From a virus: a stretch of DNA of 64,000 bases. Both the position numbers and the translations under genes were made by a program. The DNA is taken from the UHGV virus genome UHGV-0033546. The stretch is one strand, 5' to 3'. The notes under the pieces were generated by a model. It was not told the DNA's origin, did not search any database, and saw only the letters and a program-made list of their open reading frames with translations. The stretch's first letter is position 1, and each line of letters begins with the position of its first letter. This document shows positions 2,658 through 52,257 of this stretch, one piece after another.

Positions 2658-3002
2658 TTAAAAGAATTTAAATTTTTTCTTTGACCTTTTATTAAATGCA
2701 TCTTGTAGTTGCATTGTAATACATTTTTCTACATGAGGAGCTAACTCAGCTTTTCTTTCTTGGTCAAGAACAGCAAAGTCCATTACAACCTTTCCATCAA
2801 CCCAATCTAATTTTGTCACATACACAATGTGTGTAGAACCATCTTCTAGTTTAATGACAATCTCCTGGATAACATTTTCCATGGCAGATTTAATTATCTT
2901 AAGAGATTCATTAAAAAGACGTTCTTTTCTTTCTTCTTCCCCCTCCGAAGAGGGGGATTCATCGATAATTTCTAGATCTAAATCTAAATCATCTTTATTC
3001 AT
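2658..3002 (-). CDS. 40: gp40-like head-assembly protein, 114 aa
   Basis: ORF between uvsX and 41; ATG at 3002 gives 114 aa and a short overlap with the uvsX stop. Confidence 0.6.
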   Translation of the reverse strand: MNKDDLDLDLEIIDESPSSEGEEERKERLFNESLKIIKSAMENVIQEIVIKLEDGSTHIVYVTKLDWVDGKVVMDFAVLDQERKAELAPHVEKCITMQLQDAFNKRSKKKFKFF

Positions 3003-4176
3003 TAAATTCTTCCATATCACTTAACTGATCTAGGTCAGTTTCTAAATCAGCTGCTGATTTACTTTTACTTTCTGGAGATTTAAATTTTTCAACCTTTGAG
3101 TTAATCAATTCATCAACTTCAGCTTCAACAATTTCATTACTATCAATAGCACCTAATTGATAAGCACGTTTAATAGCATCTCGGAATGGCTGATGCTTAA
3201 ATAAAGGACCCCAGAATGTAGTGCAGTTGGTATCTTTTGCACGCCAAGATTTTTCTTCGCGAATCATCTCGCCGGTTTCTTCGTCAAGAAATTCACGAGC
3301 ATACCAGCCATTTTTTGGTTTTACCACAAATCCTAATTCAAGAGCCATATCTAACAATCCAGAATAAGGATCGATACCACCGTCAAATTTAACATCAATA
3401 AAGAATTTACTTTTTTCTTTAACAGTACGAGATTTTTCTACATTTAGAACAAATTGATACCCCTGAAGATCAGAACCATCTTTAATCTGGCGCTTACCGA
3501 TAATGAATACAGTATCAGCCGAATACATTACGCCTGTACCACCTGTCATCACGGTTTTACTAAACATTTCAATTGTTTCAATTGTATGGTTAACCGCAAC
3601 ACATGGAATATTTTTAATGCTAAAATAAGGAGTAACAATACGGAATAATGACTTCAGCGATTTAGCACGAGTCATATCTGCCACAGATTTTTCATTCAAG
3701 GCATCTTCCGTTTCTTTCTTAGAAGCCATATTACCGATTGAGTCGATGAATACAATAACCTTTTCACCACGCTCAATAGCTTCAAGCTGATTCACCATAT
3801 CAATTTTCAGCTGTTCAACTGACTGGATTGGCGTATGAATTACTCGTTCCGGGTCAACACCCATGGATCGCAAATAAGCTGGAGTAATACCAAATTCGCT
3901 ATCATAAAATAGACAAACCGCGTCAGGATATTTGTTCAAATACGCCGCAACCATAGTCAAAGACATATTTGATTTAAAGTGTTTAGAAGGACCTGCAAAA
4001 ATGGTTAAACCAGACTGCATACCACCATCAATCGCACCAGAAATAGCGATATTAAGCATTGGGATTTTTGTGCGAATTACATCCTTTTCATTAAAGAATT
4101 TAGATGTAGTCAGTTCAGCAGTCATTTTAGAAGTGGAAGCTTTAATCAAACGGGATTTTAAATCTGCAATAGACAT
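2995..4176 (-). CDS. uvsX: UvsX RecA-like recombinase, 393 aa
   Basis: RecA fold with Walker A GPSKHFKS; near-identical to T4 UvsX N-terminus and C-terminal acidic tail as recalled. Confidence 0.95.
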   Translation of the reverse strand: MSIADLKSRLIKASTSKMTAELTTSKFFNEKDVIRTKIPMLNIAISGAIDGGMQSGLTIFAGPSKHFKSNMSLTMVAAYLNKYPDAVCLFYDSEFGITPAYLRSMGVDPERVIHTPIQSVEQLKIDMVNQLEAIERGEKVIVFIDSIGNMASKKETEDALNEKSVADMTRAKSLKSLFRIVTPYFSIKNIPCVAVNHTIETIEMFSKTVMTGGTGVMYSADTVFIIGKRQIKDGSDLQGYQFVLNVEKSRTVKEKSKFFIDVKFDGGIDPYSGLLDMALELGFVVKPKNGWYAREFLDEETGEMIREEKSWRAKDTNCTTFWGPLFKHQPFRDAIKRAYQLGAIDSNEIVEAEVDELINSKVEKFKSPESKSKSAADLETDLDQLSDMEEFNE

Positions 4177-11529: not shown

Positions 11530-12215
11530 TAAAAATCATGGGTAGAATCAGCTTCAAGAGCTACTACATAATTCGCGTGTTCACCTTCAAATTTAGCAGC
11601 ACCTTGTTTACCTTTTGCCCAGAGCAGAAGTTTATAATTTCCTGGTTGCATTTTCATATTTGCCATATTGATAATGAAATTAAATGTATTTTCACCATCA
11701 TAATCACCAAGATTCAAAGAATATTTAACACGGGTCAGAGCAGAATCTTCTACTTTATTAAAACCGTTAATTACGATTTTACCTTCTTTTACCGTGATAG
11801 CAATTGTATCAATTTGCAGACCACGAGATACACGCAACAGTTGTTGAAGGTCTTCAGCTTTAATTTCAGTAACAACAGATGCTACCGGGAATGGAATTGG
11901 TTTATTAGGAGCAACTACTGTACTCGGATCGGCTGCTGGCCAAAAAATTGTTGAACGAGCATCAGCAATTTTAATATTTCCATCTTCTGATTGGGAAATT
12001 TCTGCATCATCATTAACTAGGGACAGAATACCGAGAAAACCGTTCAAATCGTAAATTGCTACATCAAAATCAATAGTGTCAGAAATATTTGCTTCCGCAT
12101 AAGTTGTACCATTAACTGCGCGAGTCATAATAAATTGACCAGATTTAAGCATAATACCGGAGTTAATAGTAGCGAAATTTTTCAAAATATTCAGTGTGTC
12201 TTTAGATAATTTCAT
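11529..12215 (-). CDS. 45: gp45 sliding clamp, 228 aa
   Basis: 228 aa; sequence matches T4 gp45 as recalled; ATGA overlap with upstream endonuclease-like ORF. Confidence 0.9.
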   Translation of the reverse strand: MKLSKDTLNILKNFATINSGIMLKSGQFIMTRAVNGTTYAEANISDTIDFDVAIYDLNGFLGILSLVNDDAEISQSEDGNIKIADARSTIFWPAADPSTVVAPNKPIPFPVASVVTEIKAEDLQQLLRVSRGLQIDTIAITVKEGKIVINGFNKVEDSALTRVKYSLNLGDYDGENTFNFIINMANMKMQPGNYKLLLWAKGKQGAAKFEGEHANYVVALEADSTHDF

Positions 12216-13099
12216 TTCAATTTCCTATTTACATAATAGTTAGACCAGGACCGTACAGCACCCTGATAAGATTCGTCGTTAAACCCATTAGCTACTGCAA
12301 TTTTACGAAATTTATTATAACTCGGTTTTCCGTAAGCATGCCATAAAGATTTTAATTCATCTTCATGTTCAATCCAAGTTCCTCTAGCTTTAGATTTTCT
12401 AAATTTTGATTTGAATTCCGGTGAATTATTTCTAACAGTTGCTTGAATTGAAGCTCTCTGTCTTCTTTCAGCATTATTCCATAACTCTTTTTGAGATTTA
12501 GAAATTTTTGATTTTACACTTTCTGAATTCATTATATCACTAAACTTTTTAGCATAACTGCAATCAAGATATTTCAATTTCATCTTATTTGAAAGTTTAA
12601 GCTTTTTCTCATCGGTCCAGTGATTCTTCATTGAATTAGATATTTTGTATTTTACGTCAGAACTATGTTTGTAACCTTTACGAATACCAACATAATCGGG
12701 CGTAATTTCAGATTGCGAAAGCTTTACAATTTTTCCAGTTAAAACATTTTTATATGTTCCATATCCTTTAGCGCCAATTAAAGTATTTTCATCTGCGTAT
12801 GCTTTATTAAAATATTTTATATTACTTTTTGCTTTAACTTTTAATTGAAAAAATCTTTCCAATTTTCTTGGATCTAATATAGTTTCAGCTAAAATTTTGA
12901 CGGTATATTTAGTGGTTTTAATAAGCTCAAAATATTCATCGCTATAACTCGATGACACGCTTCCAGTATAAATCTTTCCAGCTGAATCAATTATATTTGT
13001 TCCATCGAAAATTGCGTCAATTTTCGAACCTATATAATAACATGGAAAAATATTTTTAGCTTCCCGCTCTGGAAAGCTAATAAGATATACTAAATTCAT
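12212..13099 (-). CDS. free-standing homing-endonuclease-like protein (degenerate GIY-YIG-like N-terminus plus C-terminal DNA-binding module), 295 aa
   Basis: N-terminal VYLIS...(12 aa)...YYIGS resembles the GIY-X10-12-YIG spacing but lacks an obvious catalytic Arg; C-terminal 110 aa homologous to the C-terminus of the HNH ORF at 15437-16291; ATGA overlaps with rpbA stop and 45 start. Confidence 0.5.
12212..13099 (-). mobile_element. putative homing-endonuclease gene insertion between rpbA and 45
   Basis: Endonuclease-like ORF wedged between two conserved replication/transcription genes with precise translational coupling. Confidence 0.4.
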
Positions 13100-13485
13100 T
13101 TATTAAAATCAGCCGCAATTGTTTCTGCAACAATTTGAGCAGCGACAATTAGACGTTCATCTGCATTACCACAATAATCATCTTCAAGGCGTTCACCACA
13201 TGAAGTCATAATAAATTTAGCACCGGCGTTTAAAGATTCTGTCGTATGTTTGCGCATTAGTTCAATCCATTTATTACTTACTTCACGATCGATAGCTTCA
13301 TAATACGCATAACGAGCAGGTGCAGATTTAATTTTATCCTGAATAATTTCCATTGCGTTTTCAGAAAGAGACAAAACCCATGCTCGACGAATTTTATTTT
13401 GGTTTTGTGGATTTGAATCAGAACGCACGTGTTTTGGCTGAATATCTTTTACATCAACAGTATAATTCACAGTAATTTTAGTCAT
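13096..13485 (-). CDS. rpbA: RpbA RNA polymerase-binding protein, 129 aa
   Basis: 129 aa, position upstream of 45, sequence consistent with T4 RpbA. Confidence 0.7.
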
Positions 13486-13494
13486 AATACACCT

Positions 13495-13683
13495 TTAGTC
13501 ATAATAATCAGTAACAGTCCAAGCTTCATTTCTGTTGGACATTATTTTCATATATTCTGCTTTAAATGCATTCTTAAGCATAGATTCAGTAACTATATGC
13601 TCTTCATTAGAAAAATTATTTCTCAGAATATATCGTTTTATTTCAGGAATAGTTAATAGATGCTGTCCAGTTGAATATTCCAT
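13495..13683 (-). CDS. hypothetical protein, 62 aa (45.2-like)
   Basis: 62-aa ORF with ATG at 13683 between 46 and rpbA. Confidence 0.5.
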   Translation of the reverse strand: MEYSTGQHLLTIPEIKRYILRNNFSNEEHIVTESMLKNAFKAEYMKIMSNRNEAWTVTDYYD

Positions 13684-13738
13684 GTTTTTCCTCCATAGAG
13701 ATTATACTCTAATAAATTAAAGCATAATCTCTTGTAAA

Positions 13739-15421
13739 TTAAACCATTACAGTAAATCGACCAACTTTCTTCATCTGAAGATGCTGACCATATTCTTGCG
13801 GGTCATGGTCTTTATGTGAAATTATAAAAACATTAGTGTTTTTCATTGAATTTATAATATTAGCTACACCTTTAATACCTTCAGCATCAAATGACCCGTC
13901 AAACACTTCATCGAGTATTAATGTACTAATACTAACACCAGATACAATAGAAGCAATATCACGCCAAGTAAATAAAAGAGCAATATCAATTCGCGCTTTT
14001 TCACCTTCACTAAATGAAGCATAACTAAAATCTTCACGACCACGGGATTTAATTGTTTCATTAAATTCTTCATCTAATGTAAACACATAATCCGCTTCCA
14101 TTATTTTAAGATAATGGTTAATCTGCTTATTAAATAATGGAATGTACTTTTTAATAATAGCACCTTTAATACCAGAATCTTTGAGCATATCAGTCAAAAT
14201 TCCTCTGTGGTATTTTTCCATTACTAAATTAGTTTTTGTTTTAACAATTTTATCAAGTTCTTCTTGAAGCAGTGCTATTTCATCAGCATGGTCAATAAAC
14301 TCGGATGATGCTTTTTCGATAGCCGCTTTAACTTTTTTAGCTTTATCTACTGTGGTGATTAAAGACTGCTTTTTATTGCGAATATCATTTGCCAACGTCT
14401 GTTGGGTTTTAATATTATCTCGGTATTCATCAACGAGAACTTTTAAATTATCACGATGTGTTGAAAGCTGTTCAAACGAATGTGTGCATTCAGAAACTTT
14501 ATCTTTAATTTTAGAAACAACTTTATCACCGGAACTTAATTGTGACAAACAGGTTGGACATAATCCACCTTCGTGATACATATTAATGACTTTATTATAC
14601 GAGTCAATTTTTGATTTAATTAAAAATGCTTCTTGACCGATTTTATTAAATGCATCAGTCGGGTCTTCATCCAAAACAATATTAACTAATCTTTCATTAG
14701 CTTCTTCTATTTCCGATTTTAGTGTTCTAGCTTCTTTTGCCAAATCATCATACATATTCTGTAGACGAGTAAGATTATCACCAGTTAATTTTTTCTGGCG
14801 TTCAACATTATCGTTATATATTTTAATTTGTTGGATAATACTGTCTTTTTTAACATCAAGCACTTGGTTCTGCGAATTTAATTCACGTATTAGTGCTTTA
14901 TTAAGCTTATCCATTTCAGCTAATGTTCCTACCTCAAGCAGGTCTTCCACAAGCTTTCTTCGCGCAGGGGTCGACAAACCCATGAAAGGGGTATACCCTG
15001 CTGTACCAAGGACAACAATCTGCTTGAAACTGGCATATGACATTCCGATAAGCTGTTCAAATTCTGCTTGGAAATCTTTACTGCTGGCAGATTCATTAAG
15101 ACGTGTACCGTTAACGGTGATTTCGAAAACGTTTGGTTTTTGTCCTCTTTTGATATAGTACTTTTTCTCATCATATTCCATCCACAATTCAACTAAAAGT
15201 TCTTTCTTATTTGTGCTGTTTATTAATTGGCCTTTCTTTACATCACGAAATGGCTTGCCAAAAAGCCCAAATGTGATGGCTTCTAACATAGTAGACTTAC
15301 CACCGCCATTTCGTCCAGTAATAAGAGTTTTTTGAACCTTATCTAATTGAATGTCAACTCCATTTTGACCAACTGACATTATATTTTTATATTTTACTCT
15401 ATTAAGTTTAAATGATTTCAT
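13739..15421 (-). CDS. 46: gp46 recombination endonuclease subunit (Rad50/SbcC-like ATPase), 560 aa
   Basis: Walker A GRNGGGKST, long coiled coil with CPTC zinc hook, C-terminal signature and Walker B; 560 aa as in T4. Confidence 0.9.
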   Translation of the reverse strand: MKSFKLNRVKYKNIMSVGQNGVDIQLDKVQKTLITGRNGGGKSTMLEAITFGLFGKPFRDVKKGQLINSTNKKELLVELWMEYDEKKYYIKRGQKPNVFEITVNGTRLNESASSKDFQAEFEQLIGMSYASFKQIVVLGTAGYTPFMGLSTPARRKLVEDLLEVGTLAEMDKLNKALIRELNSQNQVLDVKKDSIIQQIKIYNDNVERQKKLTGDNLTRLQNMYDDLAKEARTLKSEIEEANERLVNIVLDEDPTDAFNKIGQEAFLIKSKIDSYNKVINMYHEGGLCPTCLSQLSSGDKVVSKIKDKVSECTHSFEQLSTHRDNLKVLVDEYRDNIKTQQTLANDIRNKKQSLITTVDKAKKVKAAIEKASSEFIDHADEIALLQEELDKIVKTKTNLVMEKYHRGILTDMLKDSGIKGAIIKKYIPLFNKQINHYLKIMEADYVFTLDEEFNETIKSRGREDFSYASFSEGEKARIDIALLFTWRDIASIVSGVSISTLILDEVFDGSFDAEGIKGVANIINSMKNTNVFIISHKDHDPQEYGQHLQMKKVGRFTVMV

Positions 15422-15436
15422 TTTGTATCCAATTGT

Positions 15437-16291
15437 TCACAATGAAGAAAATTCTTTAACTAAAGCCTGTAATGAAGCCTCTATTGGATATCCATTCTTA
15501 ACTAACATTTTCCTAAACATCACATGTTTAGGACGATTATATGATATCCACAATTCATACAATTTATCTTTATTATCCCAATGATAGCCTTTTCGTCGAG
15601 ATGCTATATGAGCTTTTCTAATCTCCGGATTTTTCCAACTAGCAGCTACTGAATTTAATATAGCTATTTTATATTCAGGTTTTGATAAAGCAGCACGAAC
15701 AGCCTTTTGGTGTTTAATTTTATTTTCTTCGTTATTAAACCATTCCCTTGAAGCCATTGAAATTTTTTGTTTTGTTTTAAAATTATTTAATCTTTCTTTG
15801 TTATCTTTCCTATTTTTTGCTACTGAAAAATATTTTAATGCCCTTTCTCTAGCAACATTTCTATTTTGTGGATTTGAATAATACTGTTGAAGCCTTTTTG
15901 ATATTGTGTCACTTACATCCTGTCTTATAAAACTATATTCAGCAGCTATTAAATCAACTTCGGCTAAAGATAAATTTTTATATGTTTTTCCTGACATCAT
16001 TCTATTTAAAGCATTTAGCATTTTTCCATTTTTACCTTTTGCTAATAAGAAATGTGCTTTGAAATGATTAAAATGACTTAAATTAACTAAATTCCATGTA
16101 GATTTTAAATATTCAGGAAATATTGATTTAGGAAGCACGTGGTGTGCTTCCGTTTTACCTGGAGTTTTAACAGTTGAATTCATAGAAATAAAATTAATAT
16201 AAGACTTGGCGTCTTCTTCACTCAACGCTAATTTTTCAACTAATTCCTTTATTAAAAATTCATCATTAATATCAAGTTTAAAATTCTTCAC
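15437..16291 (-). CDS. HNH homing endonuclease (mob-like), 284 aa
   Basis: HNH signature AHHVLPKS...WNLVNLS...HFNHFKAH near N-terminus; basic repeat-rich C-terminus; GTG start at 16291 overlapping upstream stop. Confidence 0.65.
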   Translation of the reverse strand: MKNFKLDINDEFLIKELVEKLALSEEDAKSYINFISMNSTVKTPGKTEAHHVLPKSIFPEYLKSTWNLVNLSHFNHFKAHFLLAKGKNGKMLNALNRMMSGKTYKNLSLAEVDLIAAEYSFIRQDVSDTISKRLQQYYSNPQNRNVARERALKYFSVAKNRKDNKERLNNFKTKQKISMASREWFNNEENKIKHQKAVRAALSKPEYKIAILNSVAASWKNPEIRKAHIASRRKGYHWDNKDKLYELWISYNRPKHVMFRKMLVKNGYPIEASLQALVKEFSSL

Positions 16292-51235: not shown

Positions 51236-51311
51236 TGGTCGAGGCAGTAGGGATCGAACCTACGACCTAGGACTTAGAAGGTCCTTGCTCTTCCTTCTGA
51301 GCTATGCCCCG
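51236..51311 (-). tRNA. tRNA-Arg (anticodon UCU), CCA encoded
   Basis: Manual cloverleaf: acceptor CGGGGCA/TGCCTCG, T-arm GTAGG-TTCGATC-CCTAC, anticodon loop CUUCUAA. Confidence 0.85.
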
Positions 51312-51315
51312 TAAT

Positions 51316-51391
51316 TGGGGTGACCGATGGGAGTCGAACCCATGACTACGAGAATCACAATCTCGAGTTCTACCAACTGAACTACGGCCAC
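51316..51391 (-). tRNA. tRNA-His (anticodon GUG), CCA encoded
   Basis: Manual cloverleaf: acceptor GTGGCCG/CGGTCAC, D-arm GTTC-AGTTGGTA-GAAC, anticodon loop UUGUGAU, T-loop TTCGACT. Confidence 0.8.
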
Positions 51392-51505
51392 ATTAATACC
51401 TACTCCAACAATCAAGATGTCTTCACACGAAATTAAGAGAAGAATGATCAGTTCAACCCTTATAATCGCGTCAAGTAGATATTAATGTGACAGTTGTCAC
51501 AAATT

Positions 51506-51580
51506 TGGCGGACATGCATGGATTCGAACCATGGACCAATTGATTAACAGTCAACTGCTCTACCACTGAGCTACACATCC
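51506..51580 (-). tRNA. tRNA-Asn (anticodon GUU), CCA encoded
   Basis: Manual cloverleaf: acceptor GGATGTG/CATGTCC, anticodon loop CUGUUAA, T-arm CATGG-TTCGAAT-CCATG. Confidence 0.8.
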
Positions 51581-51584
51581 AAAT

Positions 51585-51671
51585 TGGTGGGGAGTGATGG
51601 AGTCGAACCACCCGAGTCGCAATGACAATGGATTTACAGTCCACACCGCTACCTCTACGGGATAACTCCCC
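51585..51671 (-). tRNA. tRNA-Tyr (anticodon GUA), type II with long variable arm, CCA encoded
   Basis: Acceptor GGGGAGT/ACTCCCC, anticodon loop CUGUAAA, 15-nt variable arm, T-loop TTCGACT. Confidence 0.75.
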
Positions 51672-51684
51672 CTAATTCATAATT

Positions 51685-51759
51685 TGGTGGCCCTGGGTGG
51701 AATTGAACCACCATCTGGCGATTATGAGTCGCTTGCTTGAACCTTCCAGCTACAGGGCC
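51685..51759 (-). tRNA. tRNA with anticodon CAU (Met, or Ile if lysidine-modified as in the T4 tRNA-Ile)
   Basis: Acceptor GGCCCTG/CAGGGCC perfect 7 bp, anticodon loop CUCAUAA, T-arm GGTGG-TTCAATT-CCACC. Confidence 0.8.
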
Positions 51760-51760
51760 T

Positions 51761-51836
51761 TGGTGCTGATTGACGGAATCGAACCGCCGACATCCTCATT
51801 ACAAGTGAGGTGCTCTACCTACTGAGCTAAATCAGC
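51761..51836 (-). tRNA. tRNA-Thr (anticodon UGU), CCA encoded
   Basis: Acceptor GCTGATT/AATCAGC, anticodon loop CUUGUAA, T-loop TTCGATT. Confidence 0.85.
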
Positions 51837-51841
51837 AAAAC

Positions 51842-51931
51842 TGGCGGAGGCGATAGGATTTGAACCTATGAGTCGCCGGAGCGACTGCCGGTTTTCAAGA
51901 CCGGTGCATTAAACCACTCTGCCACGCCTCC
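51842..51931 (-). tRNA. tRNA-Ser (anticodon UGA), type II, CCA encoded
   Basis: Acceptor GGAGGCG/CGCCTCC, anticodon loop CUUGAAA, long variable arm. Confidence 0.85.
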
Positions 51932-51933
51932 AG

Positions 51934-52007
51934 TCTCCATACAAGGATTTGAACCTTGGACCTCCTGATCCCAAATCAGGCGCTCTACCAAACTGAGCTA
52001 CACGGAG
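51934..52007 (-). tRNA. tRNA-Pro (anticodon UGG), CCA not encoded
   Basis: Acceptor CTCCGTG/TATGGAG, anticodon loop UUUGGGA; 3' end is 2 nt from the tRNA-Ser 5' end. Confidence 0.85.
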
Positions 52008-52017
52008 TAAATTAAAT

Positions 52018-52091
<74 letters not shown>

Positions 52092-52096
52092 AAATT

Positions 52097-52183
52097 TGGT
52101 GCGAGAAGTGGGACTCGAACCCACAAGGAAATCATTCCGCAGCATTTTAAGTGCTGTGCCTTTACCAATTTGACCATTCTCGC
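52097..52183 (-). tRNA. tRNA-Leu (anticodon UAA), type II, CCA encoded
   Basis: Acceptor GCGAGAA/TTCTCGC, anticodon loop CUUAAAA, long variable arm. Confidence 0.85.
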
Positions 52184-52184
52184 G

Positions 52185-52257
52185 CTGGGAATAAAGGACT
52201 CGAACCTTTGCATCCTGGAATCAAAATCCAGTGCCTTACCAACTTGGCTAATTCCCA
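52185..52257 (-). tRNA. tRNA-Gln (anticodon UUG), CCA not encoded
   Basis: Acceptor TGGGAAT/ATTCCCA, anticodon loop UUUUGAU; 3' end is 1 nt from the tRNA-Leu 5' end. Confidence 0.85.

Follow-up and report, generated by a model that had tools for sequence, protein, structure and literature searches.

We find that two genes of a T4-like phage, here called ORF A and ORF B, encode endonucleases that carry homologous tails on unrelated catalytic heads. The window analysed is a 64,000-nucleotide stretch of the virus genome UHGV-0033546, in which the two genes lie 2.3 kb apart on the same strand (Table 1). The likely explanation is that A and B are free-standing homing endonuclease genes, independent of each other, in a T4-like (Tequatrovirus) phage, and that each joins a nuclease head to a modular tail, shared through old, repeated exchange of modules within the T4-like endonuclease pool and not through an exchange between A and B; we infer that the enzymes bind and cleave DNA, have particular targets and home. 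Direct observations are the domain composition of both proteins, the homology of the tails with its extent, the occurrence of the tail modules across the family and the insertion polymorphism of the genes.

Table 1. Positions in the window of the two endonuclease genes, their parts and the associated gene 46 sequences
Feature	Coordinates	Strand	Description
ORF A	12212..13099	-	Seg-type GIY-YIG homing endonuclease gene, free-standing, 295 aa, between gene 45 and rpbA; matches PHROG 655 and 7504 ('homing endonuclease')
A head, aa 1-105	12785..13099	-	GIY-YIG nuclease domain
A linker, aa 106-144	12668..12784	-	Low-confidence loop, then short beta strands; absent from B
A repeat array, aa 145-238	12386..12667	-	About six helical repeats of 16-17 aa, NUMOD3-like
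A terminal domain, aa 239-290	12230..12385	-	Three-helix; W..DEL..LW..G.P....FRK.AV..GF.D.SY...V..W
ORF B	15437..16291	-	MobD-type HNH homing endonuclease gene, free-standing, 284 aa, GTG start, between gene 46.1 and gene 46; matches PHROG 655 and 12434 ('HNH endonuclease')
B head, aa 1-120	15932..16291	-	HNH (beta-beta-alpha-metal) nuclease domain, by sequence comparison
B repeat array, aa 121-233	15593..15931	-	About seven repeats of ~17 aa
B terminal domain, aa 234-283	15443..15592	-	HMM E 2.6e-23; homologous to the C-terminus of T4 MobD
First 18 nt of B	16274..16291	-	GTGAAGAATTTTAAACTT; the same as the first 18 nt of T4 gene 46
Recoded gene 46 start downstream of B	15404..15421	-	ATGAAATCATTTAAACTT; MKSFKL, not MKNFKL

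The heads belong to different nuclease superfamilies, GIY-YIG in A and HNH in B, as the preliminary description of this DNA had proposed, and they show no similarity to each other (A1-130 versus B1-110, z -0.5). Motif A of the GIY-YIG domain is present in A as V4-Y5-L6 and Y22-I23-G24, with Y22 and G24 invariant and Y5 nearly so across 11 relatives. The same head alignment shows E81 and N98 to be invariant at the positions of the catalytic Glu and Asn, which are E75 and N90 in I-TevI (PMC2988022); a counterpart of the motif B Arg (I-TevI R27) is not obvious, as no Arg is invariant from the YIG motif to E81, and another residue may take its place in the SegG subtype. The Pfam models PF01541 (GIY-YIG) and PF19835 (SegE_GIY-YIG) do not match A, and SegE_GIY-YIG is matched by 2 of its 11 aligned head relatives (best E 2e-4). 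Membership of A in the GIY-YIG superfamily therefore rests on its fold, which has the alpha/beta arrangement of these domains, on its motifs and on its homology to SegG.

In the head of B, H50, H51, P54, V69, H76 and H80 are invariant and N67 nearly so among 24 relatives. Its profile matches McrA (6ghc, E 8.7e-5), Cas8f-HNH, a group II intron maturase, pyocin AP41 and the Cas9 HNH domain over the HH...N...H stretch. These matches to solved HNH nucleases, together with the similarity to T4 MobD, identify the head as HNH at the sequence level; the His-Me finger group 1 includes T4 MobA-E (PMC5714182). Pfam and NCBIfam returned nothing significant for either protein, a phmmer search of PDB sequences with A and B gave nothing relevant, and Foldseek with the model of A gave no PDB match. 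A profile of SegG-like heads searched against the PDB produced only spurious repeat matches to designed beta-propellers, which we rejected.

The two tails are homologous, as judged by BLASTP, phmmer and shuffle tests. BLASTP with composition-based statistics aligned A93-286 with B70-282 over 221 columns at 27% identity (E 2e-12), and among the 246 six-frame ORFs of the window A and B find only each other (phmmer E 5e-10 and 1e-9). Smith-Waterman comparisons with BLOSUM62 and 2000 shuffles gave z 14.0 for the full-length proteins, 12.8 for the last 110 aa (observed score reached in 0 of 2000 shuffles) and 13.7 for the last 60 aa. Most of the signal lies in the last 50-55 aa: the terminal domains alone (A239-295 versus B234-284) reach z 13.1, which no shuffle equals, and the two halves of the repeat region reach 3.7 and 4.4. 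Further towards the N-terminus, where BLAST extends its alignment (A93-144 versus B70-124), z is 2.0 and not significant. Reversed-sequence controls gave z 0.9 and 2.5, so lysine-rich composition is not the cause of the match. The C-terminal alignment pointed out in the preliminary description, between ORFs correctly placed on the minus strand, is thereby borne out; its three quoted blocks all fall inside the BLAST alignment, and the score of the last 110 aa exceeds the shuffled controls proposed there as the deciding comparison. The homology stands, but the shared module is not the ~110 aa given there: it spans ~150 aa (A145-290, B121-283), with 27-36% identity along the tail and 19 of 53 residues identical in the terminal domain.

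Both tails follow one plan, in which five to seven helical repeats of 16-17 aa are followed by a three-helix terminal domain of ~50 aa. Self-comparison reveals repeat offsets of 16, 34 and 46 aa in A and of 17 and 47 aa in B. The AlphaFold model of A has strands at 113-118, 124-128 and 136-138 in the linker, with pLDDT <50 at 102-109, and six predicted helices from 147 to 237, with block-mean pLDDT of 74-84 initially and 95-98 over aa 161-230; despite the high pLDDT of the repeat helices, pTM is 0.42. The repeats resemble NUMOD3 in their 16-17-aa period, their helical prediction and their ..E.+.K[IL]S... pattern, and the relatives P0005, P0013 and P0038 carry true NUMOD3 repeats at the equivalent position. 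The NUMOD3 model (PF07460) itself matches A at aa 142-158 below its cut-off (E 0.65; 10.4 bits against 20.4) and does not match B.

The terminal domain is helix-turn-helix-like, with three helices and the family pattern W..YDELY.LW....P....FR..AV..GYPD..Y..MV..F; its helices 2 and 3 are connected by a loop (NGYPD..Y) that exceeds the classical helix-turn-helix turn in length. Among 81 terminal-domain segments no Pfam family matched recurrently, the NUMOD1 and I-HmuI_NUMOD-like Pfam models matched neither these segments nor A, B or MobD, and a terminal-domain profile found nothing in the PDB. Comparison with NUMOD2, as exemplified by I-Bth0305I, gave no significant hmmsearch match and an hhalign probability of 0.2%, a single-sequence template of low power. 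Of the shared module, for which the label 'NUMOD-type' was originally suggested, the repeats are NUMOD3-like only at a level below the Pfam threshold, and the terminal domain matches no Pfam NUMOD family. A literature search covering work other than Sitbon and Pietrokovski 2003 found no description of this domain.

An exhaustive search of 1.84 billion representatives with the tail profile yielded 179 matches at E <= 1e-3; a word-indexed protein search returned few relatives (6, 7 and 4 matches), and the breadth of the family is visible only in the exhaustive search. Among the matches listed, about 80 of 150 contain the terminal domain, singly or as two or three tandem copies, in protein clusters of T4-like phages, and the heads joined to it, again among the matches listed, comprise 33 Mob-like HNH, 23 SegA-E-like GIY-YIG (a class assigned from a sequence motif) and 6 SegG-like GIY-YIG domains. 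In T4, MobD (3e-22), SegA (3e-16) and SegF (1.7e-5) bear it, so that T4 already has GIY-YIG and HNH enzymes sharing the domain. Heads of the A type also occur with tails made of NUMOD3 only (P0005, P0006), those of the B type also occur with a NUMOD1/I-HmuI-like end replacing the terminal domain (P0009-P0011), and in 23 of 66 nearest-neighbour pairs the two terminal domains belong to proteins with different head types. More than 20 other terminal domains outscore that of B against that of A, and likewise that of A against that of B (88 against up to 127-150); in a ranking of matches to the tail of A, B comes in about 21st place. At the nucleotide level, blastn of the two genes gives only scattered chance matches of 9-40 nt and no collinear similarity. 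Since the tails are not mutual closest relatives and share no DNA similarity, the shuffling must be old and family-wide and not an event here. Versions of A that are 55-60% identical occupy the same 45/rpbA site in other phages with the head and tail architecture unchanged, so the fusion is older than this genome. Module exchange as such, put forward in the preliminary description, is therefore upheld, and its placement in this genome is not. Exchange of modules between nuclease families is described as the accepted explanation for such architectures in PMC2988022 and, citing Sitbon and Pietrokovski 2003, in PMC2677866, and DNA-binding modules arranged as 'beads on a string' are common to GIY-YIG and HNH phage endonucleases (PMC2988022; PMC2677866).

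A recent exchange, in which recombination or gene conversion copied one tail onto the other gene in this phage or a close ancestor, could draw on the proximity and common strand of the two genes and on the intensive recombination of T4-like phages. It is nevertheless very improbable in view of the low identity of the tails (27% overall, 19 of 53 residues in the terminal domain), the lack of anything beyond chance matches in blastn, the many closer relatives of each terminal domain elsewhere and the divergent A versions that already have this architecture at the same locus. That the similarity merely reflects lysine-rich, helical, low-complexity repeats is a practically negligible alternative: both tails are indeed rich in K, S, N and E and internally repetitive, and their repeat halves alone score only z 3.7-4.4, but the non-repetitive terminal domain reaches 13.1 with reversed controls at 0.9-2.5, the BLASTP statistics were composition-based, and the tail profile recovers 179 proteins from 1.84 billion with a conserved pattern.

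The remaining alternatives concern function. The terminal domain could be homologous without being a DNA-recognition module, serving instead in dimerisation, by which two nicking heads would produce a double-strand break, in binding a phage replication or recombination protein, or in autoregulation of the expression of its own gene. DNA binding by the domain is something we infer, its helix 2-3 loop is long for a helix-turn-helix, and HNH homing enzymes are often nickases (PMC2988022). We consider such a role unlikely: the domain always ends a NUMOD3-like array, where I-TevI and I-HmuI have a helix-turn-helix domain; a NUMOD1/I-HmuI-like domain substitutes for it at the same position in relatives of B; it occurs in tandem like DNA-binding beads; and it is present on monomer-type GIY-YIG enzymes such as SegA. 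Slightly less probable still is that A, B or both have decayed or been domesticated and have lost their homing endonuclease function. Truncated copies exist elsewhere (B in RB68, A in ESh24 and EC121) and the motif B Arg is not evident in A, but both ORFs are full length in the window with all conserved head residues present, B is 98% conserved over 71 records, and the closely related SegG head belongs to an active T4 enzyme (PMC2988022). By analogy, the shared tail probably binds DNA. We see about an even chance that the terminal domain (W..YDELY.LW....P....FRK.AV..GYPD.SY..MV..F) is a distinct, so far uncurated DNA-binding module, a further NUMOD-type bead apparently confined to homing endonucleases of T4-like phages, often in tandem and freely swapped among HNH heads and GIY-YIG heads of two or more subtypes. 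If so, its specificity could be read from matched insertion sites, including the known targets of SegA and SegF.

Like free-standing homing endonuclease genes, A and B vary in presence among relatives, and with respect to T4 each is an insertion. T4 lacks A, having a 55-nt spacer at its position, and also lacks B, which is an 870-bp insertion by comparison. At >=95% identity A occurs in 25 phage records, and at 95-99% identity B occurs in 71, including T2 and T6. The whole region with both genes is found in only 5 of 797 related records (four phages), and a single gene in many: both are present in EC121 (with A annotated at 747 nt), GRNsp7, B1.1 and N2, A is missing from CM8 and FJ1, B is missing from PaulHMueller, and Tequatrovirus BCH953P4 has a 100% identical copy of A and no B. 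The flanks of the two sites are 96-98% identical among relatives. Decayed copies include a B of 208 aa in RB68 and an A fragment of 139 aa in ESh24. The recoded gene 46 start is identical in the B-bearing CM8. For the 5' end of gene 45, strict linkage to A of a patch of ~11 substitutions was considered and rejected, as FJ1 has most of the patch; most of it apparently also occurs in ~50 records without an annotated second gene beside gene 45. What is specific to A-bearing genomes is limited to the replaced spacer and three synonymous changes among the first 18 nt of gene 45. Because the patch is also found in genomes without A, it is weak evidence for the A target site.

I-TevI and I-HmuI serve as models for the mechanism that we propose for these two independent homing endonuclease genes. 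The tail would attach to an extended, asymmetric stretch of DNA and bring the head into position for a cut or nick close by. Alleles without the gene would be attacked, at the 45/rpbA spacer in the case of A and at the junction of 46.1 and 46 in the case of B, and during co-infection recombinational repair would copy the gene and flanking markers into the cut genome.

Among known systems, the closest named relative of B is T4 MobD, a putative HNH homing endonuclease at the nrdC.11/mobD.1 locus (30% identity over 83% of the length), whose activity is listed as 'not determined' (PMC2988022). MobD is built on the same plan of an HNH head, repeats with the 17-aa period of B and a terminal domain, but it occupies another genomic site and its sequence is much diverged, B lying at the 46.1/46 junction and being absent from T4. 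The head of A is closest to that of T4 SegG, a GIY-YIG enzyme of the 32/59 locus that is experimentally active (PMC2988022); they share the conserved Y, YIG, E and N positions and 38.8% identity over aa 1-102, whereas the C-terminal half of SegG is unrelated to the tail of A and the terminal-domain HMM does not match it. SegA and SegF, both experimentally active homing endonucleases (PMC2988022, Table 1), carry the terminal domain at their C-termini, preceded in SegA by NUMOD3-like motifs and matched only partially in SegF, but unlike A they have heads of the SegA-E subtype (YIG.H....DD.Y.GSG) and other insertion sites.

I-TevI (GIY-YIG) and I-HmuI (HNH) are modular phage homing endonucleases with solved structures; unlike A and B they are intron-encoded and end in a NUMOD1-type domain, for which A and B have no Pfam match, and A and B have no zinc finger and many more helical repeats. 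The NUMOD modules of Sitbon and Pietrokovski 2003 (NUMOD1, NUMOD3 and NUMOD4 in Pfam), as presented in PMC2677866 and PMC1564403, embody the same concept of small DNA-binding modules recombined on GIY-YIG and HNH heads, but the repeats of A and B are only NUMOD3-like and not detectably related to the 'NUMOD 2' repeats of I-Bth0305I. The finding leaves the understanding of phage homing endonucleases unchanged and adds to their modular picture two well-delimited examples, in which homologous tails are joined to a GIY-YIG head of the SegG type and to an HNH head of the MobD type. A second outcome is the delimitation of a small terminal domain outside Pfam coverage that is common to T4 SegA, SegF and MobD and that, with several bearers of known or inferable target, could serve the study or engineering of DNA recognition in modular nucleases. 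Set beside these systems, the A/B pair is genuine but unexceptional, one more instance of the mix-and-match construction already known from phage homing endonucleases.

ORF A (295 aa) and ORF B (284 aa) share their C-terminal region and differ in their heads. BLASTP aligned the two proteins over 221 columns at 27% identity (E = 2e-12), and searched against the window's 246 six-frame ORFs, either one retrieved the other alone. The preliminary description had proposed that their last ~110 aa align, and this was confirmed against 2000 shuffles (z = 12.8; z = 13.7 for the last 60 aa), with the heads scoring z of about 0 in the same comparison. The bulk of the signal comes from the terminal 50-55 aa (z = 13.1), and the halves of the repeat region preceding the terminal domain gave z = 3.7 and 4.4. 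Residues A93-144, where the BLAST alignment begins, showed no significant similarity to B, and reversed-sequence controls excluded a composition effect as the source of the likeness. While the C-terminal sharing is real, its extent exceeds the ~110 aa first proposed: the common module spans ~150 aa (A145-290, B121-283).

That this tail is joined to two different catalytic heads, as had also been claimed, agrees with our analysis of each head. Residues 1-102 of A are 38.8% identical to T4 SegG, an active GIY-YIG homing endonuclease (PMC2988022). Among 11 relatives, Y22, G24, Y44, E81 and N98 never vary and Y5 hardly does; these residues form the GIY...YIG...E...N signature, and the motif-B Arg has no evident counterpart. 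B is 30% identical to T4 MobD across 83% of its length, with H50, H51, H76 and H80 invariant and N67 nearly invariant among its relatives, and its head profile matches the solved HNH nucleases McrA (E = 8.7e-5), Cas8f-HNH, pyocin AP41 and Cas9 HNH. T4 Mob proteins have been placed in His-Me finger group 1 (PMC5714182). Between the head and the helical repeats of A, AlphaFold predicts three short beta strands (aa 106-144), an element absent from B.

Self-comparison revealed that A, B and MobD each repeat every 16-17 aa, and the AlphaFold prediction places six helices, one per repeat, in A aa 147-237. The repeat pattern, ..PE.+.K[IL]S....K..W., resembles NUMOD3 at a sub-threshold Pfam score (E = 0.65). 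As to the earlier label "NUMOD-type", 81 segments of the ~50-aa terminal domain yielded no recurring Pfam family. Likewise, the terminal-domain profile found no match among PDB sequences, and no relation was detectable to the helix-turn-helix repeats that are named "NUMOD 2" in I-Bth0305I.

When 1.84 billion representative proteins were searched exhaustively with a profile, 179 matched at E <= 1e-3. The terminal domain is present in ~80 among the 150 matches listed, in one to three tandem copies each; two or three copies occur in a protein of phage PHB13 (L006; the same protein is found in phage Cognac) and in the relatives P0015 and P0017. Among these ~80 carriers, the attached heads are Mob-like HNH (33), SegA-E-like GIY-YIG (23, a class assigned by sequence motif), SegG-like GIY-YIG (6) and HNH_3 (1), the remainder being fragments. 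BLAST-level matches (326 records) come only from T4-like phages of enterobacteria, Aeromonas, Serratia and Edwardsiella. On the T4 genome (loci L013-L017), the terminal-domain HMM detected MobD (3e-22), SegA (3e-16) and, partially, SegF (1.7e-5); therefore, T4 itself has GIY-YIG and HNH enzymes that share the domain. Relatives P0005 and P0006 carry the A-type head with NUMOD3-only tails, and P0009-P0011 carry the B-type head with a NUMOD1/I-HmuI-like end.

The preliminary description read the shared tail as domain shuffling between mobile nucleases in this genome. The kind of interpretation is right, but its place and time are not, since closer relatives of both tails lie elsewhere. The terminal domains of A and B score 88 against each other, a value surpassed by more than 20 other domains against A and likewise against B, and B ranks only about 21st among matches to the A tail. 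The two genes have no collinear nucleotide similarity, and the same architecture is already present in other phages whose copies of A, at this locus, are 55-60% identical. On these grounds, we reject a tail exchange within this genome. Across the family, nearest-neighbour terminal-domain pairs lie on opposite head types in 23 of 66 cases, which suggests that modules were exchanged repeatedly over a long period.

The window derives from a T4-like phage (Tequatrovirus), and this region shares 97% identity with phages EC121, GRNsp7, vB_Eco-B1.1 and N2. The genes run gp44, gp45, ORF A, rpbA, 45.2, gp46, ORF B, 46.1, 46.2, gp47 and alpha-gt, all on the minus strand; public records label A and B "homing endonuclease" or "hypothetical protein". 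Both are absent from T4. Among close relatives, A occurs in 25 records and B in 71, including T2 and T6, with both present in four phages. A frameshift shortens the decayed B of RB68 (P0008) to 208 aa; A is annotated only as a 139-aa tail fragment in ESh24 (P0014) and at 747 nt in EC121, which is counted among the decayed copies. Variable presence, insertion and decay are all consistent with a homing endonuclease gene's life cycle. Phage N2 has a third endonuclease gene, an "HNH endonuclease", at a position between 45.2 and gene 46 where the window carries none; this short region is a hotspot for insertions of the kind. No group I intron exceeded the Rfam threshold across the whole window. Elsewhere, 11 clustered tRNA genes explain why G+C peaks locally, at 0.42, over 50-52 kb.

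Coordinates of the features discussed
Feature	Source	Position	Strand
ORF A	window	12212-13099	-
Beta-strand element of A	window	12668-12784	-
Gene 45 5' end	window	12180-12215	-
ORF B	window	15437-16291	-
First six codons of B	window	16274-16291	-
Gene 46 restart	window	15404-15421	-
tRNA gene cluster	window	51239-52257	-
Third endonuclease gene	phage N2 (L002)	2739-3455	+
A as annotated	phage EC121 (L001)	1213-1959	
Tandem terminal-domain protein	phage PHB13 (L006)	355-1377	

A stands in place of the 55-nt rpbA/gene 45 spacer and overlaps each neighbour by 4 nt. In A-bearing genomes, gene 45 carries ~11 substitutions relative to T4 within its initial 36 nt (TTALL to TLNIL). FJ1, which is without A, has a hybrid allele with most of this patch, and the near-match apparently recurs in ~50 further records that show no second annotated gene beside gene 45. 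What is specific to A-carrying genomes is limited to the replaced spacer and three synonymous changes within the opening 18 nt of gene 45.

Compared with T4, B adds 870 bp, inserted right where gene 46 begins. Its first six codons (GTG AAG AAT TTT AAA CTT) are exactly those of T4 gene 46, which restarts downstream of B in recoded form (ATG AAA TCA TTT AAA CTT); therefore, the insertion split the gene 46 start and brought a replacement 5' end. The sequence suggests a B target across the 46.1/46 junction and a recoding that would protect the carrier; the insertion possibly destroys its own target site as well.

GIY-YIG and HNH phage endonucleases are known to have "beads-on-a-string" DNA-binding regions, in which common small modules appear in varying combinations (PMC2988022; PMC2677866; PMC1564403); Sitbon and Pietrokovski 2003 is the source cited in this literature for such shared modules. 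The modular principle of these enzymes is already established, and what may be new here is limited to defining the bounds of this terminal domain and charting where it occurs.
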